From Alphaproteobacteria bacterium (GTDB lineage Bacteria; Pseudomonadota; Alphaproteobacteria; MPNO01; UBA830), in contig OZ251539.1 in the NCBI GenBank assembly GCA_965243135.1, forward strand, positions 4,480,001 through 4,544,000: a stretch of 64,000 nucleotides of DNA, written 5' to 3'. Shown here piece by piece: positions 4,331-19,878 of this stretch. Positions within the stretch are counted from its first letter, which is position 1. Every line of letters begins with the position of its first letter. The translations under genes were made by a program, and so were the position numbers. A model generated the notes under the pieces. That model made no database searches and had not been told where the DNA came from. It saw nothing but the letters and a program-made list of their open reading frames with translations.

Positions 4331-4990
4331 CGAAACTGCCCAAACTACGGCCGATTTCCGCAAACTCCGCCTGCGAACCCCATGCCCGCCTCGCCGACAA
4401 AGCCCACATGGTAGAACCGCGCTCCGAACCGTCAGAATGGTGCGAGAGGCATGACTCGCACAGCGGACAAGGCGGGAAGCGTTTGGTCCGCGCGCCGATG
4501 CCGTGTAGACAGGTGGAGGGAAGCGCAAGCTCAGCGCAGGTCATGAGGACTGACTGAAGATGACGCCATCGAGTAACTGTTTCGCAATGACCGCAACCGA
4601 GCCGGCCGATTCCTCACGAGATCGAAGGCGAACGGGGCGGCCCGCCACCAAGAAGACCGTCGCTCGGCCATGGAACCGCCTGCGTAGCCCTCTTCGCCGG
4701 CCAAGGCCCTACGGCCGTTCCGGTTTAAACACGGCACGATCCGTTCGGGCCGTCCGGTTCCACGCCAGACGGCGCTTCAGGCTGGCTGACATGGTTCGCG
4801 CTCCCGATGATCGACGTTCTCCCTTGGTGGAGCGGGCGGACGAGGCGGGCCTGCACTTCGACGCGGTCGTGGACCGCGAGGAAGAGTTCTCGGTTACGAC
4901 AATGCCTGAAACCGCGTTCCGCCGGGAATGCGATCTCCGGGCGCCATGCCGGGCGGAGGGCGTCATCGGCGAATCGGAGGCGCTGGCTGC

Positions 4991-6811
4991 ATGACCCCTG
5001 CCGACCTCGCAATCCTCATCCAGCAGGGCGAGGGCACCACGCTGGAGTTCAAGGAGAGCCTGTCCTCGTCGTTCGCGCGGGAGCTCGTCGCCCTGGCCAA
5101 TACCATCGGCGGGAAGATCCTCCTCGGCGTGCGCGACGGCGGCAGCGTGGTCGGGATCAAAGACACCAACGGCCTGCGCGCCCACGTTCAGAACGTTGCC
5201 CGCAATTGCGATCCGGCGGTGAAGGTGCTGGTCGAGCCGGTGGACGGGGTGCTCGCGGTCCATGTCCGGGAAAGCAACGCCAAGCCGGTGCAGTGCAGCG
5301 AGGGCTTCTTCTGGCGTCAGGGCGCGGTGACCCAGAAGATGAACCGTGACGAGATCCACGACTTTTTCCGCGCCGAGGGCGCGATCCGGTTCGACCTCTC
5401 GCCCTGCTCCCGCTTCAGCTACCCGGAGGATTTCGACCGCGAGAAGTTCGACGGCTGGCTCGCCCTGTCCGGCATCACCGGAAATCCGCCGGTCGAGGAC
5501 GTGCTGGTCAACATCGAGGTCGCCGAGCGGGCCGGCGACAAGTTGCTCTTCCGCAACGCGGGAGTACTCTTCTTCGCCAAGAACGCGCGTCGTTTCTTCC
5601 CGGAGGCGTACATCACCTGCCTGTTGGCAAGGGGTACGGACAAGGTGCATATCCTGGACCGCAAGGATTTCGACGGCGGCATCGTGGCCGACGTCGAGGA
5701 CGCCATGCGCTTCATCGAGCGCAACACCCGCACCGCCTACCGCATCGAGGGCTTGAGGCGGCAGAACATCCCGGAGTACCCGATGGAGGCCGTGCGCGAA
5801 GCGATCACCAACGCGGTCATGCACCGGGACTGGTTCTTCGACGGCGCCAACGTTTTCGTCGAGGTCTACACGGACCGGATCGAGGTTATCAGCCCCGGCA
5901 GCCTGCCCAAGGGCCTGACCCTGTCCGATCTCGGGCACATGAGCATCCGCCGGAACCCGCTCGTCGCCGACCTGCTCCACCGCATCGACTTCATCGAGAA
6001 GGCGGGCACGGGGATCCGCCGCATCCGGGACGGCGCGAAAGCCGTGGATTGCCCGGAGCCGGAGTTCGAAGCCAACAATTTCGTCACTGTCACTTTTCGT
6101 CCGAACCCGGAAGTGCGGGAGGTGTCGGGGGGTGATCGGGTCGCCGATCAAGTCACCGGGGAAGTCACCGGGGAAGTCACCGGGGAAGTCACCGGGGAAG
6201 TTCGACTGCTACAGGCGATGTCGGGCGAAATGACCAGGCAAGACCTCCAAGAAGCCGTTGGCCTGAAACACGAGGACCATTTCCGCAAAGTCTATCTGAC
6301 ACCAGCTCTTGAGGCCGGCCTGATCGAAACGACCATCCCGGACAAGCCGCGCAGCAGCAAACAGCGATACCGCCTGACGCCCGAGGGAAGCGAGTACCTG
6401 AAACGAAACCCGGAAGTGCGGGAGGTGTCGGGGGGTGATCGGGTCGCCGATCAAGTTACCGATCAAATCACCGGGGAAGTCGCCGGGGAAGTCGCCGGGG
6501 AAGTCGCCGGGGAAGTCGCCGGGGAAGTCGCCGGGGAAGTCGCCGGGGAAGTCGCCGGGGAAGTCGCCGGGGAAGTCGCCGGGGAGGTTCGACTGCTACA
6601 GGCGATGTCGGGCGAAATGACCAGGCAAGACATCCAAGAAACCGTTGGCCTGAAACACGAGGACCATTTCCGCAAAGTCTATCTGACGCCAGCTCTTGAG
6701 GCCGGCCTGATCGAAATGACCATCCCGGACAAGCCGCGCAGCAGCAAACAGCGATACCGCCTGACGCCCGCGGGAAGCGAGTGCCTGAAACGAATCGGAG
6801 AAGCCCGGTAA
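4991..6811 (+). CDS. AlbA_2/Schlafen domain + RecG-C-like (HATPase_c_4) protein with duplicated C-terminal wHTH
   Basis: GEGTTLEFKES, VALANTIGGKILLGV, REAITNAVMHRD, RNPLVADLL..IEKAGTGI; C-terminal module ending PDKPRSSKQRYRLT occurs twice. Confidence 0.85.
   Translation: MTPADLAILIQQGEGTTLEFKESLSSSFARELVALANTIGGKILLGVRDGGSVVGIKDTNGLRAHVQNVARNCDPAVKVLVEPVDGVLAVHVRESNAKPVQCSEGFFWRQGAVTQKMNRDEIHDFFRAEGAIRFDLSPCSRFSYPEDFDREKFDGWLALSGITGNPPVEDVLVNIEVAERAGDKLLFRNAGVLFFAKNARRFFPEAYITCLLARGTDKVHILDRKDFDGGIVADVEDAMRFIERNTRTAYRIEGLRRQNIPEYPMEAVREAITNAVMHRDWFFDGANVFVEVYTDRIEVISPGSLPKGLTLSDLGHMSIRRNPLVADLLHRIDFIEKAGTGIRRIRDGAKAVDCPEPEFEANNFVTVTFRPNPEVREVSGGDRVADQVTGEVTGEVTGEVTGEVRLLQAMSGEMTRQDLQEAVGLKHEDHFRKVYLTPALEAGLIETTIPDKPRSSKQRYRLTPEGSEYLKRNPEVREVSGGDRVADQVTDQITGEVAGEVAGEVAGEVAGEVAGEVAGEVAGEVAGEVAGEVRLLQAMSGEMTRQDIQETVGLKHEDHFRKVYLTPALEAGLIEMTIPDKPRSSKQRYRLTPAGSECLKRIGEAR
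6104..6793 (+). repeat. In-frame tandem duplication containing 12-bp VNTRs
   Basis: Copy 1 at 6104-6406, copy 2 at 6407-6793; gtcaccggggaa x4 (6152-6199) and gtcgccggggaa x9 (6479-6586). Confidence 0.95.
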
Positions 6812-8613
6812 TGGCGAAGATCAACGTCACGAAGACCGAACTGGTCTGGCCCGGCAAATATAACGATGACGGGTCACTTAAGGAAGTTCCGCGGGTTAAT
6901 CTGCCGTTCCAGATCATCGAGACCGTCAACGAGAGCCGTGCCACCCGCGAGGCGAAGAGGGGCGGCGTGCAGACATCGCTGTTCGACGTCTACGAGGGTA
7001 ACGAGGGCGACACCTTCGAGGAAGGATGGAAGAACAAGCTCATCTGGGGCGACAACCTGCTGGTGATGGGATCGCTCTTGGAGAAGTTCGCAGGGAAAGT
7101 CGATCTGATCTACATTGATCCGCCATTCGCTACGGGGGCAGATTTTTCGTTTACTGCGGAGATTGGTGAATCTGGCCTCAATCTGGAAAAGGAACAGACG
7201 CTAATCGAGGAAAAAGTATATCGGGACACTTGGGGATCAGGTACAGCATCATATCTCAATATGGTGCAGATGAGACTTAATTTACTCAGAGATATATTGA
7301 GCCCTACAGGCAGTATTATCCTCCATTGTGATTTTCGACTCTCCCATCTGCTCGGTGTAGTCCTTGATGAAATATTCGGACTTGGGGATCGGGGGTCTCG
7401 CGCAGATGAACCAGGTTTCCGAAACGAGGTAGTGTGGTTATACGGTCTTGGCGGATCGAGTCCAAAGTGTTATCCAAAGAAACATGACTGCCTACTTTGG
7501 TATTCAAAATCCACTCAATGGTTTTTTGATCCTCCAAAGATTCCGGCAACATCTCAGCGAATGAAGGGGCAGGATAAGAAGTGTCCTGACTATTGGGATA
7601 TTCCCAATATTAATAATATGGCTGACGAGCGTACAGGTTATCCCACACAAAAACCAGAAGCATTGCTGGAGAGAGTTGTCTCTGCGCACTCACGCCCAGG
7701 AGAACTTGTTGCCGATTTTTTCTGCGGCTCCGGTACGACTCTTGCTGTCGCCGAGAAACTCGGACGCCGTTGGATCGGCTGCGACCTAGGACGATGGGGC
7801 ATCCACGTTACCCGAAAGCGGCTGCTCGGTATCCAGAACTGCAAGCCCTTCGATTTGCTGAATCTAGGCAAATACGAACGCCAATACTGGCAAGGCGTAA
7901 CCTTCGGAGAACAAAAAAGCAAGCCCGTTGCCGAGCGAGCACTTTTCGAATATCTTTCCTTTATCCTCAAGCTTTACGGTGCCCAGCCAGTGGCGGGCAA
8001 TGACCATCTGCATGGCAAGAAGTACAAGGCCATGGTCCATATCGGTGCTGTGGATGCGCCAGTAACCATCGGCGAAATCGCATTCACGGTAGAAGAATGC
8101 GTCAAGCTGAAGCAGAAGGAATTGCACGTTCTCGGTTGGGAATGGGAAATGGGCGTTCAGGATCTCGTGGTTCAAGAAGCGAGGCGCAAGGGCGTCAAAC
8201 TACTGCTGTTACAGATCCCTCGCGAGGTCATGGAACAACAGGCCGCCGACAAGGGTGACGTTCGCTTTTTCGAGTTGGCATACTTGGACGCTGTGATCAA
8301 GAAGCCGAAGAAACTCGTCGCGCAAGTGGCGCTCAAGGATTTTGTGATCCCCAACGCCGAGCTCGTCCCGGACGAGGTGCGGAGCAAGATCACGAAGTGG
8401 TCGGACTACATCGACTATTGGGCGGTGGATTGGGATTTCCGAAACGACACCTTCATACAGGGATGGGTGGCCTACCGCACCCGTAAGGACCGGACACTGT
8501 CCCTCGTGTCCGGCGCGCACGCCTATGAGAAGACGGGTCAGTATCAGGTGCTGGTCAAGGTCATCGACATCTTTGGCAACGATACGTCGCAAGCATACGA
8601 GGTCAATGTATAG
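6811..8613 (+). CDS. mod: Type III R-M methyltransferase (Mod)
   Basis: NKLIWGDNL, IYIDPPF, YPTQKPEALL, DFFCGSGTT (beta-class order), VKVIDIFGND; TAATG overlap with the upstream gene. Confidence 0.9.
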   Translation: MAKINVTKTELVWPGKYNDDGSLKEVPRVNLPFQIIETVNESRATREAKRGGVQTSLFDVYEGNEGDTFEEGWKNKLIWGDNLLVMGSLLEKFAGKVDLIYIDPPFATGADFSFTAEIGESGLNLEKEQTLIEEKVYRDTWGSGTASYLNMVQMRLNLLRDILSPTGSIILHCDFRLSHLLGVVLDEIFGLGDRGSRADEPGFRNEVVWLYGLGGSSPKCYPKKHDCLLWYSKSTQWFFDPPKIPATSQRMKGQDKKCPDYWDIPNINNMADERTGYPTQKPEALLERVVSAHSRPGELVADFFCGSGTTLAVAEKLGRRWIGCDLGRWGIHVTRKRLLGIQNCKPFDLLNLGKYERQYWQGVTFGEQKSKPVAERALFEYLSFILKLYGAQPVAGNDHLHGKKYKAMVHIGAVDAPVTIGEIAFTVEECVKLKQKELHVLGWEWEMGVQDLVVQEARRKGVKLLLLQIPREVMEQQAADKGDVRFFELAYLDAVIKKPKKLVAQVALKDFVIPNAELVPDEVRSKITKWSDYIDYWAVDWDFRNDTFIQGWVAYRTRKDRTLSLVSGAHAYEKTGQYQVLVKVIDIFGNDTSQAYEVNV

Positions 8614-8953
8614 CGCAATGCTGATGCTTCACCCCGAAGAACAAACTTGGCTGGACGAATATCGAAAGGCACTCGGCGAACGGTACCCAGGTGCGGTCTT
8701 GCGCATGGTCATATACGGATCAAAGGCGCGAGGCGATGCGCGAGAGAACAGCGACCTGGATGTACTCATCATTGTCAGAAACGAAGCGACCGCTCTCAAG
8801 ATCCCTCTCCGGTGTATCGGCTACGATCTGGCTACGGAGTCATACGCCGTACCCTCCATTATGGCGTATACGCAGGCCGAATGGGATCGCCTAGAGGCCT
8901 TACGCTCGGCTTACCGGGAATCGGTCGAACGCGACGGGATAACGGTGCTGTGA
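8606..8953 (+). CDS. Minimal nucleotidyltransferase (MNT antitoxin-like)
   Basis: YGSKARGDARENSDLDVLII motif; start at 8606 or 8618. Confidence 0.85.
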   Translation: MYSAMLMLHPEEQTWLDEYRKALGERYPGAVLRMVIYGSKARGDARENSDLDVLIIVRNEATALKIPLRCIGYDLATESYAVPSIMAYTQAEWDRLEALRSAYRESVERDGITVL

Positions 8954-9360
8954 ACCGGGAAATGACGGCGGCAGAGCGGCGCGCAGTGAAGTCTCTGGGC
9001 ACCGCCAAAATCCTGATGCGCTCCGGCTACCCGGAGGATGCAGTGTCCCGGTGCTACTATGCGGTTCTGCATGCCGCCAAATCGGCGCTGTTCGTGCACG
9101 ATGTCGACACTGCGAGTCATGCCGCGGTGCGCAGGATGTTCGGCCTCCATCTTGTGCGTTGGGGCGAAGTCGAACAGCAATGGGCGAGTGCGCTCGCTCG
9201 GACGATGGACGGCCGACTGATGGCCGACTACAGCGCAGATGCGCGCTTATGAGGAAACCCGAGGCTGCGCAGGTCGAACCAAGGCGTTCATCAAACGGTA
9301 GTATCTGTTGGCCAAGGACTTGACCGATCAGCAGCTAGAACTGGAGCATGGCAATGACTG
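8950..9360 (+). pseudogene. HEPN-domain protein (UPF0332-like), C-terminus disrupted
   Basis: DAVSRCYYAVLHAAKSAL, SHAAVRRMFG, RLMADY; stops at 9252, and a plausible C-terminus continues in another frame with an internal stop. Confidence 0.7.
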
Positions 9361-9391: not shown

Positions 9392-12250
9392 ATGGCAAAC
9401 GCCGTCATTCGCTACGACAGGGAGCTGCCGGAGATTCGAGGCCGCCGACCGTGGGAGCCGCCCGTTTCCCATCTGGTCAAGGACGACGACGGCTGGCACG
9501 AAGACGACTCCGGCCGCCGGCCGAGTAGGCTGTTGCTGGCGCCGAAGATTCGCGATGCGGTGAACGCTTGGCGCGACGGCGGGTATCAGGGCGCCTCCGA
9601 AGTCACCCGACGTCTGTTGGAATACTGGTTCGAGGAAGATCACGAGGTCGACGACTTCGACGTGCCGTTCCGATACCACTTCTGCCAGCGCGAGGCGATA
9701 GAGACGTTGATCTGGCTGGTGGAAATCAATGGCCAGCGCGACGCGAAAGCGTTGATCGAGGCCCACGGAACGATCGTTCAGAGGGATCTGGCTTCGAAGA
9801 ACCTCGAGTTCCAGACGACGATGGAAGGGAAGCGCCAGCTTCGCCGCTACATCCCGGAACGGGAAGCGGAAGGCGTGCAGGATCTGCCGCCCGAGAACCT
9901 GCGCCGGTTCGCCTTCAAGATGGCCACCGGCTCGGGCAAGACTTGGGCAATGGTGATGGCCATCGTCTGGTCCCGCCTCCACAAGCAGCACGTTTCCGGT
10001 TCGGACATGTCGACGAATTTCCTCGTCGTCGCGCCCAACGTCATCGTGTATCAACGGTTGGAGAAGGACTTCGCGAACAATCGGATATTCCGTCGGCTTC
10101 CGCTCGTTCCGCCGGAATGGCGGGGCGGTTTCTCACAGAAAGTGATTCTTCGAGGGGAGGCCACCGAACCAGATCCGTCAGGAAATCTTTTTCTTACCAA
10201 CATTCACCAACTCTACGAGTCGCGCGACCACGATTGGACACCGGGGAACGCCGTCGAGGCGCTTCTAGGCATGAAGCCGTCGCAAGACCTCGCGTCGTCC
10301 GCTCAGCGCTCAATGTTGGAACGGATTATGTCGCTCAAGGACCTCGTCGTGTTGAACGACGAAGCGCATCATGTCCACGACGATGCCCTTTGGAACAAAT
10401 CGCTTCTCGCCGTTCACGAAGCGCTGCCGCACGGCCTTGGTGCTTGGCTCGATTTCTCGGCCACGCCGAAGGACCAGAACGGCATGTATTTCCCCTGGAC
10501 GGTCGTGGATTACCCGCTAGCGCAAGCCGTAGAAGATCGAATCGTCAAAGCCCCCATCATCGTCACAAAGGAGGCCGACCAGAATCAGCCGACCGAAGAT
10601 CCCCACGTGAAGGACATTAACAGGCACAACGTGGCGGAGAAGTACGGCTACTGGCTACAGGCCGCGGTTCGGCGCTGGAAGGAGCACCAAAAGGCGTACA
10701 AGAAGCTGGGCATCAGGCCAGTGCTCTTCATCATGGCGGAGAAGAACGTCTACGCCGACGTCTTGGGCGAGCATCTATGGAACACCAAGGAGTTCGGCTT
10801 CAAACAGTCCGAGGTGCTCGTCATCCATACCAACAATGAAGGTGAGATCAACAACGAGCGTGATCTCGAAAAGGCCCGGCAAGCGGCCCGAGACATCGAC
10901 GACGCCGACAGCAGGATCAAGGCCATCGTCAGCGTGATGATGCTGCGCGAGGGATGGGACGTGCGCAACGTGACTGTCGTGCTGGGCCTGCGGCCGTTCA
11001 CCGCCACAGCCGAAATCCTCCCAGAGCAGGTGATCGGGCGCGGGTTGCGCCTGATGACGCAGGTAAGTCCGGACCGGACGCAGACCCTGGAAGTGCTCGG
11101 CACGCGCAATCTGCTCAACGTCCTCCGCGAGCAACTGGAGGCGGAAGGCGTCGGTGTGGCGAGCACGCCGACCAATCCGCCATCGCCGATCGTCATCGAA
11201 CCGGTGAAGGAACGACTGGAGTACGACATTGCCGTTCCCATCACCAAACCCAGCCTGAAGCACGACCACCGCAAGCTATCGAATCTGGACGTGCAGTCCC
11301 TCAAGCCGGTATTCGATCAGAAAGAGCTCGACGAGCGGTTCCGGATCACGCTGAAACTGGAATTCGCCACGACCGAAACCGAAGTGCATCACGAAGACAT
11401 CCCCGGCGGCGGGCGGCCCGTCGAGGAAATCCTGGCCGACGTGACCAACTTGGTGGCTGGCAAGGCAGGGCTGACCAATCGTTTCGCGGAGTTGTACCCT
11501 AAGATACGCGAGTACGTCGGGAGTCGGTGTTTCGGCCGGGAGGTCGACATGGACGACGACGCCCTCCGCTCCCATCTGGCCCGACTGGAAATAAGGGAAG
11601 GCATCGCCGATTACCTTGTCCGCAAGATCGCCGATCTCACCGTCGAACGCCGAGAGATCGAATTCGACAAGGAGGGCTTCCGCCTGTCCGAAACCAGACC
11701 CTTCAGCTGGCGGCGAAACCTTCCGCCTCTGGAAGCGCGGAAAACGGTGTTCAATTTCGTCGCCACCTACAACGATTTCGAGCGCGGCTTTGCGGAATTC
11801 ATGGACGGAGCGGAGGACATCCTGCGCTTCGCTGCGTTGGGCACGACGGAACAGGGGGCCTCCGGCACGTCGTTCCGCGTCGATTACCTGAAGCCGAGCG
11901 GCACCATCGGGTTCTACTACCCGGACTGGGTGGCCGTTCAGCGCGACGCAGAAGGCGGGATAGTCAACTGGATCGTCGAGACCAAGGGCCGCGTCTGGGA
12001 AGGCACCGACGAGAAAGATGCCGCTATGCAGGAATGGTGCCGACGCGTTACCGAGGCAACGGGCGATGCCTGGAAGTACATCCGCGTGAACCAGATCGAT
12101 TTCCGCCCGGACTTCGCCACTTTTCGAGCGCTCGTATTCGCCTTGGTCGGCAAGGTCATGACTCGAAAGCGCGACGCGAGCGGAGCCATCATGTCGCGCG
12201 AGGAGTTTCTTCAATGGCGGGATGAGGGTCGTCGCGAATGGCCATTGTGA
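9392..12250 (+). CDS. res: Type III R-M restriction subunit (Res) with antitoxin-like C-terminal extension
   Basis: FKMATGSGKT, NDEAHH, FSATP, MLREGWD, EQVIGRGLR, and YYPDW..IVETKG nuclease motif. Confidence 0.9.
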   Translation: MANAVIRYDRELPEIRGRRPWEPPVSHLVKDDDGWHEDDSGRRPSRLLLAPKIRDAVNAWRDGGYQGASEVTRRLLEYWFEEDHEVDDFDVPFRYHFCQREAIETLIWLVEINGQRDAKALIEAHGTIVQRDLASKNLEFQTTMEGKRQLRRYIPEREAEGVQDLPPENLRRFAFKMATGSGKTWAMVMAIVWSRLHKQHVSGSDMSTNFLVVAPNVIVYQRLEKDFANNRIFRRLPLVPPEWRGGFSQKVILRGEATEPDPSGNLFLTNIHQLYESRDHDWTPGNAVEALLGMKPSQDLASSAQRSMLERIMSLKDLVVLNDEAHHVHDDALWNKSLLAVHEALPHGLGAWLDFSATPKDQNGMYFPWTVVDYPLAQAVEDRIVKAPIIVTKEADQNQPTEDPHVKDINRHNVAEKYGYWLQAAVRRWKEHQKAYKKLGIRPVLFIMAEKNVYADVLGEHLWNTKEFGFKQSEVLVIHTNNEGEINNERDLEKARQAARDIDDADSRIKAIVSVMMLREGWDVRNVTVVLGLRPFTATAEILPEQVIGRGLRLMTQVSPDRTQTLEVLGTRNLLNVLREQLEAEGVGVASTPTNPPSPIVIEPVKERLEYDIAVPITKPSLKHDHRKLSNLDVQSLKPVFDQKELDERFRITLKLEFATTETEVHHEDIPGGGRPVEEILADVTNLVAGKAGLTNRFAELYPKIREYVGSRCFGREVDMDDDALRSHLARLEIREGIADYLVRKIADLTVERREIEFDKEGFRLSETRPFSWRRNLPPLEARKTVFNFVATYNDFERGFAEFMDGAEDILRFAALGTTEQGASGTSFRVDYLKPSGTIGFYYPDWVAVQRDAEGGIVNWIVETKGRVWEGTDEKDAAMQEWCRRVTEATGDAWKYIRVNQIDFRPDFATFRALVFALVGKVMTRKRDASGAIMSREEFLQWRDEGRREWPL

Positions 12251-12645
12251 TCGATGCTTCCATCGCCATCGCTTGGCGCCTGCGGGATCGTGAAGGAATG
12301 CCTTATGCCGATTCCGCGATCGAACGGGGTGGGCTGGAGAGCGTCGTCGTGCCGGATTTGTTCTGGCACGAAGTGCGCGACGTCCTGCTGGTCGCGGAGC
12401 GCAAAGGGCGCGTTGACGCCGACACTGCGGAAGATCATCTGAAAGACCTGCGCCAACTATCTTTCCAATCCGACGGCGATCAAAGTGACGATCTGATCGC
12501 CGAGCTGGTCCGTCGCCACGGCCTCAGCGGCTACGACGCAGCGTACCTGGAGACTGCGATACGCCGCGGGGCTAAACTCGCCACCCTCGACAAGAGCCTC
12601 GCGGATGCCGCTGCCAAAGAGGGCGTTTTCATGGAGGGCGACTGA
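12238..12645 (+). CDS. vapC: VapC/PIN-domain toxin
   Basis: VIDAS, VPDLFWHEV, LSGYDAAYLE and LATLD; acidic PIN residues present. Confidence 0.9.
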   Translation: MAIVIDASIAIAWRLRDREGMPYADSAIERGGLESVVVPDLFWHEVRDVLLVAERKGRVDADTAEDHLKDLRQLSFQSDGDQSDDLIAELVRRHGLSGYDAAYLETAIRRGAKLATLDKSLADAAAKEGVFMEGD

Positions 12646-15438: not shown

Positions 15439-17220
15439 AGGCAAGCCTGTCTCGAAACGAGCCGGCCGTTTTCGGGGCCGCGGTCGCGAAAAGCCCGGAA
15501 GCGCGACACGGAGATCCCCCCGGCTCGAACTTTCGGACGGAGACGTCTCGCCGCGCTTTTCGCACAAGCCGTCGACGGCGCCGTGCTCGGACGGGCCGTG
15601 TCGGCATTCTCCCGGCCGGATTTGGAATCCGGGCGAAAAACGCCCTGCCGACGGGACGTTCTTGGGGAAGGCCGCTCAACCCTGCTTGCGTTCAGGAAAC
15701 GGGCCGGCGGCGAGTTCCTCGGAAACGACATGCCCGCCGGGCGGGTCCTGGCGGCAAGCCGACTTGCCCCGGTTCCAGCCGCCGAGACGAAGGCAGGACG
15801 GCCGCGCCGCCGACGCGGCAGCGCGTCCATCAGCCGAAGCCGGCGGCATAGCCGGAATCCGCCGTCGGCATCCCTTCGGACGAGCGAAGCCCGCCGCCGG
15901 CATTTTGCAACCGAACGACGCCTGTGGCATGGTCCGGTCGGACGCTCAGCGAAGGGTGACGGCAATGAGCCGCAGGAAGCGAGGACGAAGGCCGCCCGGC
16001 AAGCCGGCGAAGCGGCCCGCCCCGCCGCCAGCCCGCTCGCCGGCTCCGGCTGCGCCGACCATTGGAGACTGGTTCGCTCAACCGCTTGCCGTCCCGGCCC
16101 TCGTCCTGCTGGTGGCCGTCAGCTACGGTCCAGCGTATTTCGCCGGCTTCGTATGGGACGATCGGGTCTTCGCCCAAGCCCTCGCCGTTCGGGACGTGGA
16201 CGGTCTCGGACGCCTCTGGTTCTCGCCTTCGGAGCTCAGGGACGAGGGGCATTACTGGCCGCTGGTCTATACGACCTTCTGGCTTGAGCACAAGCTCTGG
16301 GGGTTCGCTCCGGCCGGCTACCACATCGTCAACGTTCTCCTGCACATCGCCAACACCCTGCTTCTCTGGCGTCTGGCCGAACGGCTGGCCGTGCCCGGCG
16401 CGTGGGCAATCGCCGCCGTCTTCGCCGTCCATCCCCTGCACGTCGAGTCCGTCGCCTGGGTCATCGAACGCAAGGACCTGCTCTCGGGCCTGTTCTACCT
16501 CGCCGCCTTCCTGACCTGGATCCGCTTCGTCGAGCGGCCGCGGCCCGGAAGTTACCTCCTGGTGCTGGCGCTGTTCGCGCTGGGAATGCTCTGCAAGTCC
16601 ATCGTGGTGACGCTGCCCGCGGCGCTGGCGATCTGGCACTGGTGGAAGCAGGGCCGGATCTCGGGAACCGACCTCCTCCGGCTGGCGCCTCTCGCCGCCG
16701 CGGGCGCGGCGATCGCGGCGCTGGACGTGTCGTTCTACAACGAGAGGGAGCCGGTTTCCCTGGGCTACACGGCGGTCGAGCGGCTGCTGATCGCGGCGCA
16801 GGCGCTGTGGTTCTACGTCGGCAAGCTGCTGTGGCCGGGCGGGCTGGCGGTGATCTATCCGCATTGGGAAGTGAGCGCCGGAAACCCGGCGGGGTGGGCC
16901 TGCCTCGCGGCGGCGGCCGCGGCGGTCGCGGGCCTGTGGCTCCTCCGTCATCGGCTCGGCCGGGGACCCCTCGCGGGCGTTCTGTTCTTCGCGGTGACGC
17001 TGTCGCCGGTGCTGGGGTTCGTGGACTACGGCTACATGCAGTTCTCGTTCGTGGCCGACCGCCACCAGTATCTGGCGGGGATCGGGCTGATCGCGGTGCT
17101 CGTGGGCGCGGCGGCGCGCGGCGCGAGCCGCCTGCCGGCGTGGCGCAAGGGCGCGGCCGGCGCCGCGGCCGTCGTGCTGGTCGTCCTCGGGGCGCTGACG
17201 TGGCGGCACGCGGAAATCTA
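13948..17220 (+). repeat. ~970-bp near-identical direct repeat shared by the TMTC-like paralogs
   Basis: 13948-14915 matches 16253-17220 (offset 2305) with few substitutions. Confidence 0.9.
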
Positions 17221-17740
17221 CCGAGACGGAATCACTCTCTTCAACCACGTCATTGCGCACAATCCCACGGCGCGGTTCGCTCATCGCAATCTTGGCGAAG
17301 CCCTGACCAAGTTGGGAAAATGGGAGGAAGCTCTCGCCGCCTTTCGCGTCGCCGTGGCGCAGACCCCGGACGACGCCCGCGACCATTCCAACGTGGGAGC
17401 CGCGCTGATCATGCTGGATCGGCACGACGAGGCCGAGGAACCGTTTCGCCGCGCCTTGGCGCTGGATCCGAAATCCACCTACGCCCTGCAGAACTTCGCC
17501 TCGCTCAGGACCAGGCAGCAACGCTATCGCGAAGCTCTCGATCTCTTTCGCCGCCTCGTCCGGGTCGATCCCCGCAATCCGAGCGCCCACCATGGGATGG
17601 GCACCGTGCTTTATTTTCTCGAAAGACCCGAAGAGGCGCTCGCTTCCCTGGAGCGGGCGCTGGCCCTGGATCCCCTGCGCGACGACATACGCACCAATCG
17701 CGACCAGGTGCTGACGTTCCTGCGGCGGCGCGAGCGATGA
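15965..17740 (+). CDS. TMTC-like GT-C glycosyltransferase with C-terminal TPRs (copy 2)
   Basis: Same motifs as copy 1; real start MSRRKRG at 15965. Confidence 0.85.
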   Translation: MSRRKRGRRPPGKPAKRPAPPPARSPAPAAPTIGDWFAQPLAVPALVLLVAVSYGPAYFAGFVWDDRVFAQALAVRDVDGLGRLWFSPSELRDEGHYWPLVYTTFWLEHKLWGFAPAGYHIVNVLLHIANTLLLWRLAERLAVPGAWAIAAVFAVHPLHVESVAWVIERKDLLSGLFYLAAFLTWIRFVERPRPGSYLLVLALFALGMLCKSIVVTLPAALAIWHWWKQGRISGTDLLRLAPLAAAGAAIAALDVSFYNEREPVSLGYTAVERLLIAAQALWFYVGKLLWPGGLAVIYPHWEVSAGNPAGWACLAAAAAAVAGLWLLRHRLGRGPLAGVLFFAVTLSPVLGFVDYGYMQFSFVADRHQYLAGIGLIAVLVGAAARGASRLPAWRKGAAGAAAVVLVVLGALTWRHAEIYRDGITLFNHVIAHNPTARFAHRNLGEALTKLGKWEEALAAFRVAVAQTPDDARDHSNVGAALIMLDRHDEAEEPFRRALALDPKSTYALQNFASLRTRQQRYREALDLFRRLVRVDPRNPSAHHGMGTVLYFLERPEEALASLERALALDPLRDDIRTNRDQVLTFLRRRER

Positions 17741-19878
17741 CCCGACGCGGACGAAACGCGGAACGCGCGGGCCGGAAGAGGCGGCGGCCGATCGGCAAGC
17801 GGCGGCAGTCGGCCGACAGGCCGGCGCGGCGGAGGCCGGCCGGCAAGCTGGCGGCATGGCTGCAGTCTCTGCCGTCGCTCCCGGATCTTCACGATCTCAA
17901 GCCCCGGACGGACGCCGTCGGCCTCGCGCTGCTGTTCGCCGGCGCATTCGCGCTGTACGCCGTTTCCGCGCCGCGCGGCGTCGTTCTGGAGGACGACGGC
18001 CTCTTCATCACCACCGCAACGTTCGCCGGGGTCGCGCATCCGCCGGGATATCCCCTGTACATCCTTCTCGGCTGGCTCGCCACGCTGGTTCCGCTCGGCG
18101 AGGTCGCCTGGCGCGTCCACGCGCTCAGCGGCCTGATGGGCGCACTTGCCTGCGCCTGCGTCGCGTGGGTCGTGCTGCGCCGCACCGGCAATCGGCCCGC
18201 CGCCTTGCTGGCCGGCGCAGCTCTCGCGGTCTCCGAGCATTTTTGGTCCCAGGCGATCATCGCCGACGTCTACACGACCAATGCCGCCGCAGTGTTCCTG
18301 ACGATGGCCCTTGCGCAGGAGGCGGCGGCGGCGCGGAGCGCGCGCTTGTGGGTCGCGGCGGCCGCCGTCTGCGGGCTCGGCCTCGCCAACCACTACCCGC
18401 TTCTGATTCTGGCGAGTCCCCTGTTCCTCGCTTACGCCGTCGGGGCGGGGAGGGATTTCTGGCGCAGGCTCCCCTATCTGATCCCGGTCGCCGCGCTCGC
18501 CGTGGCCGCTCTCTACGGCTGGATGGTGTGGCGATCCCACCAGCCGCTTCCGGTCAATTTTCTGGGTCCGATCCAATCCTGGAGCGAGTTCCTCTCTTTC
18601 GTCGACCGCAGCATTTACTCGCACATCGACCAGAATCCCAACGCCGGCCTCGTCGACAAGTTCTATTTCGCCGGGCACTTCACGATGCAGGCGCTGCTGC
18701 AGTTCGGCGTGATCGGCACCCTCGCCGCGCTCTGGGGCGCGGTCGCTTCGTGGCGGCGCGGCTGGCGGCTCGGAATCTCCTGCGAGGCGCTCGCGTTCGC
18801 GGCCAGCAGCTTTCTGCTGGTCGCCATGCTCGGTTTCAACTACGAGCCCCTCAGGATTTCCACCTTCCGCCCGTATCCGCTGGTCGCCTACGGCGTTCTC
18901 GCGCTCTGGCTGGGCCTCGGCGCGCACGCGTTGACGCTATGGGCGCGAGGCCGGCGCAGGCCGTTGCTTCCGGCCGTCTATGCGGCGTGCGCGCTCCTCG
19001 TGGCGGCCCTCGGCGGCCGGAACTTCGAGATCAACGACAGATCCCGTGAACGGTTCGCCGAGGAGCAGGCGCGGGCGTTGCTCGACGTCCTCAAGAAAGA
19101 CAGCGCCTTCGTCCTGTACGCGGATCCGTTCGTCGGCCCGATATCCTATCTCCACTGGGTGAAAGGGCTGCGTCCGGATTTGCGGCTGCTGGAGTATCAC
19201 GGCGTGTACTTCGACGATCGGGTCGTGCGTCCGTTGTGGACCACGAAACGGAAGACCGCCGGCTGGGCCGAGTTTCTCCGGAACGCGGACCGGCCGGTGT
19301 ATTCCCTCTGGTACGGCCCGGCCTTTTCGAAAGCGGGTCTGGCGCACGTGGGCTTCTTCGTGCAAGTTCACAGGGAAGTCGGGCCGGGCCGGATCGAAAT
19401 CCGGCCCAACGACAAGGCGAAGGAATACTTCAGGAAACTGATGACGATGCCGACGCCCAGGGATCTGGCCAGCGCCGTCCACCGGAACGAAATGCTCAGG
19501 GCCTACGGCGAATACATGGGTCTGGCGCAGGTGAACGCAAAAACCGCGATGAACGAATACGTCGCGGACATCGTGCCTCTGGCGGCCGAAAACTACTGGT
19601 CGCTGATGGGGATGTCGAAGGCGCTCGTGAGTCAACCGGGCGACCGGCCGCTGCGGCTGGCGGAAACCTACCTGCGAAAGGCGAGGCGCGTCGCGGACGA
19701 CGACCTCGGCAAGGAAGCCAGGGCGACGGCGATCTTCGTGGAAGCTCAAATCGAGCGGCGAAAGGGCAATCTCGACAAGGCGAAGGCCTTGTTCCGCGAG
19801 TCCCTGCGGATCGACCGGGGTCCGGACAACCCGTCCCGCGAGGCGCTCGCGAGGATGGGACCCGCCGCGCGGAAGTGA
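17737..19878 (+). CDS. DUF2723/TMEM260-like GT-C protein with C-terminal TPR
   Basis: EDDGLFITTA..GVAHPPGYPLY, FWSQAIIADVY, GLANHYP; ATGA overlap with the upstream gene. Confidence 0.8.
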   Translation: MTRRGRNAERAGRKRRRPIGKRRQSADRPARRRPAGKLAAWLQSLPSLPDLHDLKPRTDAVGLALLFAGAFALYAVSAPRGVVLEDDGLFITTATFAGVAHPPGYPLYILLGWLATLVPLGEVAWRVHALSGLMGALACACVAWVVLRRTGNRPAALLAGAALAVSEHFWSQAIIADVYTTNAAAVFLTMALAQEAAAARSARLWVAAAAVCGLGLANHYPLLILASPLFLAYAVGAGRDFWRRLPYLIPVAALAVAALYGWMVWRSHQPLPVNFLGPIQSWSEFLSFVDRSIYSHIDQNPNAGLVDKFYFAGHFTMQALLQFGVIGTLAALWGAVASWRRGWRLGISCEALAFAASSFLLVAMLGFNYEPLRISTFRPYPLVAYGVLALWLGLGAHALTLWARGRRRPLLPAVYAACALLVAALGGRNFEINDRSRERFAEEQARALLDVLKKDSAFVLYADPFVGPISYLHWVKGLRPDLRLLEYHGVYFDDRVVRPLWTTKRKTAGWAEFLRNADRPVYSLWYGPAFSKAGLAHVGFFVQVHREVGPGRIEIRPNDKAKEYFRKLMTMPTPRDLASAVHRNEMLRAYGEYMGLAQVNAKTAMNEYVADIVPLAAENYWSLMGMSKALVSQPGDRPLRLAETYLRKARRVADDDLGKEARATAIFVEAQIERRKGNLDKAKALFRESLRIDRGPDNPSREALARMGPAARK

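Follow-up and report, generated by a model that had tools for sequence, protein, structure and literature searches.

A type III restriction subunit with a VapB-like antitoxin tail directly upstream of an overlapping vapC gene

We examined a 64,000-nucleotide (nt) stretch of DNA from an Alphaproteobacteria bacterium (GenBank assembly GCA_965243135.1, contig OZ251539.1, positions 4,480,001 to 4,544,000 of the forward strand), here called the window, in which a vapC gene (12238..12645, on the plus strand like every window feature described below) directly follows the gene for a type III restriction subunit. This vapC encodes a predicted PIN-domain RNase toxin of 135 amino acids (aa) (Pfam PIN, 3.4e-14), and the locus raises the question of what keeps such a toxin silent. 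The original prediction, made from the sequence, held that the restriction subunit itself carries the antitoxin at its C terminus. The upstream gene, res (9392..12250), encodes a 952-aa protein with a superfamily 2 (SF2) helicase, a putative C-terminal nuclease domain and a fused tail. Its C terminus reads ...WKYIRVNQIDFRPDFATFRALVFALVGKVMTRKRDASGAIMSREEFLQWRDEGRREWPL*, and no stop codon precedes the tail of about 30 residues. The vapC ATG at 12238 lies within the tail, and the res stop codon (TGA, 12248-12250) follows it to give a 13-nt overlap. Every sequence detail originally described holds. No separate antitoxin gene was recognized beside vapC: five neighboring or overlapping open reading frames (ORFs) had no Pfam match at E<=1. 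The boundary of the tail needed correction: the folded Res domain had been taken to end at ...NQIDF, but tail-less homologs run about 15 to 25 residues further. The added piece is therefore approximately 12155..12247 (VMTRKRDASGAIMSREEFLQWRDEGRREWPL), a putative VapB-derived toxin-binding tail that matches free antitoxins at the profile level and is missing in the tail-less homologs.

The reading frame across the junction was confirmed in independent assemblies. Contigs from sequencing runs X1 and X2 (555 nt) and X4 (261 nt) span res, the tail and vapC with 0 differences, although these runs possibly derive from the source sample. A 528-nt contig from run X5, which belongs to another study, covers 12016-12543; it differs from the window by 15 substitutions, has no indel, and the two substitutions that fall in the tail (12184 A>G and 12196 G>T), read in the res frame, are synonymous. 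The res-vapC junction is not an assembly error. A Shine-Dalgarno-like GAGGG for vapC (12224..12228), as read from the sequence, falls in the Glu-Gly codons of the DEGR motif of the tail, and GAGG or GAAGG stands 9 to 12 nt 5' of the vapC ATG in most of 24 loci compared. The DEGR motif would serve two purposes, because its Asp-Glu-Gly codons also give the GAGG ribosome-binding site of vapC.

We compared the tail with the C-terminal ends of free antitoxins encoded beside related vapC genes. Aligning a profile of 103 Res tails with a profile of 37 free antitoxins by hhalign gave a 94.7% probability (E 6e-8) over 25 columns, which correspond to columns 65-89 of the 90 antitoxin columns, that is, to the C-terminal end of the antitoxin. 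We accept the homology because this profile match is combined with an identical position before the same VapC subfamily. The genome of the window has one other member of this VapC subfamily, in a paralogous module (reverse-strand coordinates 1333186-1333856) where a free Phd-type VapB ending in ...DLRDAGRR overlaps its VapC. A hidden Markov model (HMM) of the 37 free antitoxin ends found this free antitoxin (E 2e-4) in a set of 88,538 six-frame ORFs of the genome and, at the same database size, matched 7 of 23 other Res tails at E<1e-3. The homology does not extend beyond the tail: Res has no Phd/YefM, AbrB or RHH domain, and its N-terminal part is that of a restriction subunit. Since the N-terminal DNA-binding and dimerization domain is missing, Res as a protein is not a member of an antitoxin family. 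Rather, a putative C-terminal toxin-binding peptide of the VapB or Phd-YefM type lies immediately 5' of vapC and overlaps it.

The same arrangement recurs in other genomes. We scanned the 80 closest VapC loci, taking one genome per species, and in 23 of them the ORF that ends at the vapC start encodes a Res of 930 to 1000 aa with the same tail (loci L005-L024, L028, L029 and L037; L077 has a Res fragment). At least 37 of the 80 loci instead have a free small antitoxin upstream, ending in ...(V/T)(S/T)xEEIxxxR(D/E)EGR(R/A), a count that is a lower bound because the motif pattern missed free antitoxins such as those of L035, L054 and L066. The EE...RDEGRR ending that the original prediction expected of antitoxins paired with such VapCs thus proved right. 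An N-terminal PhdYeFM_antitox domain was present in 6 of 10 free antitoxins tested, and we therefore regard the free small proteins as ordinary antitoxins. Their VapCs are more distant from the window's VapC than the Res-linked ones are, and the stop/start junctions are alike in both kinds of module, mostly a 1-nt TGATG or TAATG overlap. Another 19 loci were assigned to neither class: they lay at contig ends, matched VapC only in part or had a different upstream ending, or, in L025 and L032, had longer ORFs. Those longer ORFs, of 247 (L025:2258-2998) and 271 (L032:2186-2998) residues and with no Pfam domain, close with the same antitoxin end, and they may be further grafts of the antitoxin peptide onto other proteins. 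Pfam searches of L025, L032, L034 and L038 returned nothing useful.

Seen from the Res side, the tail marks one part of the family. In a collection of 5.8 billion proteins, it was found in 119 of the 120 best Res homologs (67 to 95% identity over the last 393 residues); among these 120, P0046 is truncated, and P0052, P0061 and P0089 have variant tail endings. In contrast, only 2 of 74 full-length representatives (those of at least 780 aa, out of 150) of Res clusters at 50% identity end in the motif. The tail-less representatives, which appear from 57% identity down, end 15 to 25 residues past the VNQxxF strand, and Res proteins of the same phylum at 35% identity have no tail and, in the ORF listing, no vapC-sized ORF after them. 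The tail is thus a clade-specific add-on to Res. When metagenome contigs were scanned with the 253 C-terminal residues of Res as seed, which does not select for vapC, the tail was present in 4 of 80 loci (L104, L105, L133 and L183), each with a VapC-profile match immediately 3' (E 1e-43 to 2e-55), whereas no such match followed a tail-less Res in any of the 62 loci with at least 420 nt downstream. This co-occurrence is a pattern and not a statistic, because some of the Res-seeded rows are duplicates. A scan of viral contigs yielded a single relative, which is tail-less. Seen from both sides, many other Res proteins with a DEGRR-type ending are followed by vapC.

The ratio of nonsynonymous to synonymous substitution rates (dN/dS) was 0.184 over the 26 codons of the tail, against 0.178 over the 60 codons before it, as estimated from 62 usable pairs of 153, synonymous sites being saturated in the rest. 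Purifying selection is therefore no weaker on the tail than on the nuclease domain. On the VapC side, the acidic residues that had been noted as intact (D6, E45, D100 and D118) are present and kept in all 22 Res-linked homologs and in 36 to 37 of 37 homologs linked to free antitoxins. A VapC tree placed 21 of the 22 Res-linked VapCs in one clade (support 94/91), while L028 grouped with two free-antitoxin rows from Dehalococcoidia in a starred clade of 24. The tree is compatible with one origin of the fusion as well as with more than one. The hosts of the Res-linked VapCs are labelled Pseudomonadota, Acidobacteriota and Actinomycetota.

We modelled VapC together with the last 50 residues of Res. 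The C-terminal ends of VapB antitoxins block the active site of VapC, and the predicted complex has the corresponding geometry. The complex score (ipSAE) was 0.80, 0.80 and 0.68 in the three runs, compared with 0.01 for the best of three controls, so that the AlphaFold-type check of tail and toxin passes its controls. The runs shared at least 91% of their contacts, with a model confidence (pLDDT) of the partner of at least 76. The modelled contacts on VapC (residues 7-8, 44-45, 97, 99 and 117-119) flank all four acidic residues, those on the tail include E43, G44 and R45 of the invariant EGR, and the model supports a position of the tail over the VapC active site. An AlphaFold2 (AF2) model of Res residues 700-952 predicts that the last helix of the nuclease domain runs into the tail and is followed by a second helix, a helix-loop-helix along which pLDDT drops from 95 to 49. 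Among solved structures, no complex of this VapC subfamily was found; the nearest relatives of VapC are the apo PIN proteins PAE0151 (6e-18) and PAE2754. For the tail, a profile search of the PDB produced nothing above chance level (best E 0.064, to a centrin) and thus no solved relative. The pass may partly reflect likeness to known complexes, because VapBC complexes in general are known.

Taking the fusion, its conservation, the antitoxin-end homology, the co-occurrence with vapC, the purifying selection and the control-passing complex model as established by these analyses, we infer that Res neutralizes VapC and that its loss would have consequences for the cell. The reading we favor, and which we consider reasonably probable, is that Res is the antitoxin carrier, that coupled translation hands VapC to the tail, and that the RNase is freed once Res is lost, degraded or inhibited. 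In a type III restriction-modification (R-M) operon of the form mod-(HEPN)-res-vapC, the Res subunit would have taken the place of the VapB DNA-binding domain, and its last 30 or so residues would be the toxin-binding C-terminal peptide of a Phd/YefM-type VapB. Translation of vapC would be coupled to the end of res, and each new VapC would for that reason probably meet the Res tail, which would lie across the PIN active site and keep the RNase silent. Mutation, deletion or degradation of Res, or a phage factor that pulls it away, would free VapC to cut RNA, and growth would stop. The module could then addict the cell to the restriction gene, stand behind restriction as a second, abortive-infection line, or do both. 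The structural half of the original prediction is supported by the tail homology, the conserved fusion and the complex model. A stricter version, in which a VapC dimer sits on two Res tails as a true guard and is released by a phage anti-restriction factor, by Res proteolysis or by a conformational change linked to cleavage, is possible in our view, though we would not count on it.

Several observations weigh against the reading we favor. Searches with the last 50 and the last 30 residues of the tail found no match in Pfam or NCBIfam. An HMM of the 38 C-terminal residues of the 37 free antitoxins failed to find Res among the ORFs of the window's genome at E<=10, and one built from the 10 nearest free antitoxins (those whose VapC is at least 45% identical) ranked Res first of the 88,538 ORFs at an E value of only 0.08 (13 bits). 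The predicted similarity to VapB/Phd families stands in the profile-profile comparison with free antitoxin ends, but the window's own copy matches single HMMs only weakly, and the homology accordingly rests on profiles and intermediates and not on the window copy alone. Conservation of DEGR may partly be at the DNA level, because its codons double as the ribosome-binding site of vapC. In the calibration of the complex score, 58 of 80 solved complexes came up to the mark and so did 2 of 110 mismatched pairs, but this calibration holds only roughly here because our own alignments (A2, A1) were used. Some of the modelled contacts may not exist in full-length Res, because residues 7-20 of the modelled 50-residue chain probably pack on the nuclease domain there. 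Finally, vapC is broken in the Res-tail loci L029, L037 and L077, where 49, 67 and 93 codons remain open, and in the genome of L012 (G443) the match directly 5' of Res is limited to residues 3-152 of Mod, the methyltransferase; together these cases indicate that the module can decay.

The likeliest of the alternatives is that a free peptide neutralizes VapC, either as a separate mini-antitoxin of 30 or 19 residues started at an internal ATG (12158 or 12191) or as a piece clipped from Res by a protease. The original prediction had raised the internal starts, and their existence holds: both in-frame ATGs are present, and a GGAG (12182-12185) stands 5 nt before the one at 12191. Codon position 21 (12158) is ATG in 20 of the 24 loci, with the ATG one residue off in a 21st (L024), position 32 (12191) is ATG in 16 of 24, and the complex model requires the terminal peptide only. 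As a conserved feature, however, the mini-antitoxin did not hold up across the 24 loci. Position 32 is CTG, TTG, ATT, GTG or GTT in 8 of them, only 4 have GGAG ahead of it, position 21 lacks a consistent upstream ribosome-binding site, and in the variant contig from run X5 the GGAG is changed to GGGG. Conservation of Met21 can be explained without a start codon, because it lies in the modelled interface and M, I or L occupies that position in the aligned free antitoxins. The strict retention of the in-frame fusion in 119 of 120 homologs would also be unexpected if a free peptide sufficed. From the sequence comparison a conserved mini-antitoxin is unlikely, although the window copy might still make one, and we give the free-peptide explanation as a whole only a small chance.

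An improbable explanation is that the tail is a docking peptide through which the restriction complex gains VapC as an additional nuclease that works in the bound state, for instance on phage transcripts or R-loops. The fusion does tie VapC physically to a DNA translocase-nuclease, and an R-x4-H-like motif occurs in the long C-terminal extensions of some Res relatives. R-M helicase or nuclease subunits fused to HEPN RNases are also described in excerpts of Anantharaman et al. 2013 (PMC3710099). Against this, the four catalytic acids of VapC all lie on the face where the model puts the tail, and the invariant EGR makes contact there. The tail is moreover homologous to antitoxin ends, whose known role, as seen in solved VapBC complexes, is inhibition.

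The extensions just mentioned are an observation in their own right. Some members of the Res family (proteins P0170, P0181, P0188, P0200 and P0201, and locus L091) have C-terminal extensions of about 250 residues that contain F-R-N-x3-(A/V)-H, which we take to be a HEPN-like (R-x4-6-H) motif; Pfam had no match there. If this assignment is correct, the Res family has recruited RNases at its C terminus at least twice.

The arrangement might also be an evolutionary accident, in which a vapBC module inserted beside res lost the 5' part of vapB and left a neutral remnant with a decaying or harmless vapC. The disrupted vapC genes of L029, L037 and L077, which look like recent toxin decays (in L029 and L037 the Res with its tail is intact despite the interrupted vapC), would fit such a history. 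So would the failure to find the region in 40 related genomes, where only two short matches of at most 70 nt were seen, a result that fits a mobile island. Yet 119 of 120 close homologs, down to 67% identity, retain the fusion, the hosts are labelled as three phyla, dN/dS is 0.18, the catalytic residues are intact in 22 of 22 homologs, and the tail strictly co-occurs with vapC. This conservation already largely refutes an accident, which we regard as very improbable. It is just as hard to credit that the free Phd-type VapB of the paralogous module neutralizes VapC in trans and the Res tail is irrelevant: the genome's other VapC of this subfamily does come with a free antitoxin ending in ...DLRDAGRR, but that VapC is distant (phmmer E 3.5e-16, versus 3.9e-84 for self), and the conserved fusion in other genomes would be left unexplained.

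In the window the operon has the order a Schlafen/AlbA_2-HATPase-winged helix-turn-helix (wHTH) gene, mod, a HEPN ORF, res and vapC. The mod gene (6781..8613) encodes the type III DNA methyltransferase (Pfam N6_N4_Mtase 4.3e-39; PADLOC MTase_III 5.3e-119), and a mod homolog stands directly 5' of Res in all five related genomes checked. In the genome of L012, mod may be truncated while the res-tail fusion and vapC are intact. The helicase of Res is matched by Pfam ResIII (1.4e-16, residues 149-360) and PADLOC REase_III (1.3e-18), and the protein scores 274 bits against the NCBIfam BPTD_3080-family restriction endonuclease, under the 800-bit cutoff. The window's Res has no Pfam nuclease match; PF19778 (RE_endonuc) has a precomputed match in close Res homologs and matches distant ones at 1.2e-6, and the AF2 model of residues 700-952 shows a confident alpha/beta fold (pLDDT 86.8).

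Between mod and res lies an ORF of 201 aa (8647..9252) with a HEPN domain (Pfam PF05168, 1.7e-10, residues 111-197) and no match in its first 110 or so residues, which gives the operon two candidate RNase toxins, HEPN and PIN. By their coordinates, the genomes of L005, L007 and L019 leave no space for this ORF between mod and res, and it is a variable accessory gene outside the conserved core. The upstream gene (4928..6811) encodes a protein with Schlafen AlbA_2 and HATPase_c_4 domains and two copies of a Fic-like_C winged helix; it contains an internal duplication with the copies parted by GEVT/GEVA tandem repeats and matches PADLOC models associated with pAgo (7.8e-26). It resembles the Schlafen-kinase-wHTH backup effectors of BREX described in excerpts of PMC12839542. 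Elsewhere in the window, 16402..19878 encodes an ordinary protein of 1158 aa with TMEM260-like/PMT_2 glycosyltransferase and tetratricopeptide repeat (TPR) domains, unrelated to the finding reported here.

Among known systems the closest in logic is PrrC, an RNase encoded inside an R-M operon, which is thought to be silenced by association with the type Ic enzyme EcoprrI and is freed when the phage inhibitor T4 Stp hits EcoprrI, as set out in excerpts of three papers (PMC1484252; PMC3710099; PMC12707154). The likeness, an analogy, lies in an RNase toxin encoded within an R-M operon and restrained, as proposed, by the restriction enzyme, and by the same analogy we infer the role of guard or addiction device. 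PrrC combines a HEPN nuclease with an ABC-ATPase domain, has a type I partner and has no recognizable antitoxin peptide, whereas the window system has a PIN/VapC toxin, a type III enzyme and an identifiable antitoxin peptide fused to Res. The window system may work like PrrC, yet its 135-aa PIN toxin is no member of the PrrC family. With canonical Phd/YefM-type VapB-VapC modules it shares the VapC subfamily, the C-terminal antitoxin motif and the overlapping stop/start. Unlike in canonical VapB, the DNA-binding and dimerizing domain of about 50 residues is replaced by a restriction subunit of 920 residues, and autoregulation, and probably lability, would thereby be lost or changed.

Other reports place RNases beside or within restriction systems. 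The HEPN fusions of Anantharaman et al., which excerpts of that paper (PMC3710099) read by analogy with PrrC, share with the present system the coupling of an RNase to the restriction subunit and not to the methylase; there the toxin domain itself is fused, whereas here the antitoxin peptide is fused and the toxin is separate and would be releasable. Excerpts of Matelska et al. 2017 (PMC5499597) describe PIN-like toxin-antitoxin (TA) genes embedded in type I R-M operons, so that PIN toxins are genomically linked with R-M subunits in that set as in the window, but those cases are complete TA pairs beside hsd genes. The same excerpts state that a direct TA-RM interaction was not yet shown; a direct interaction between Res and VapC is implied here by the gene fusion itself. 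In a 2026 survey, the backup effectors listed for BREX include RNases of the HEPN, PIN and Schlafen kinds. We found no antitoxin peptide fused to a restriction subunit in the literature, although the supplements of PMC5499597 and PMC3710099 might contain such architectures.

On the basis of gene neighborhoods, immunity has long been proposed to be coupled to modules for suicide or dormancy, and PrrC/EcoprrI is the classic worked example. In the locus described here the coupling is written into the protein, as an antitoxin peptide of about 30 residues on the restriction subunit with a separate toxin behind it. The evolutionary path, from a free Phd-type VapB to a Res fusion, is visible, and because antitoxin peptides can move onto large unrelated proteins, other orphan toxins are worth checking for antitoxin grafts on their neighbors. 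The system offers a small, well-defined interface to mutate and more than 100 natural variants, and the tail-less sister enzymes are built-in controls. If Res does act as a guard, failure of restriction, or restriction itself, would lead to an RNase burst that aborts infection. It would then be the first R-M guard whose link from sensor to effector can be read from the sequence, as a grafted antitoxin peptide.

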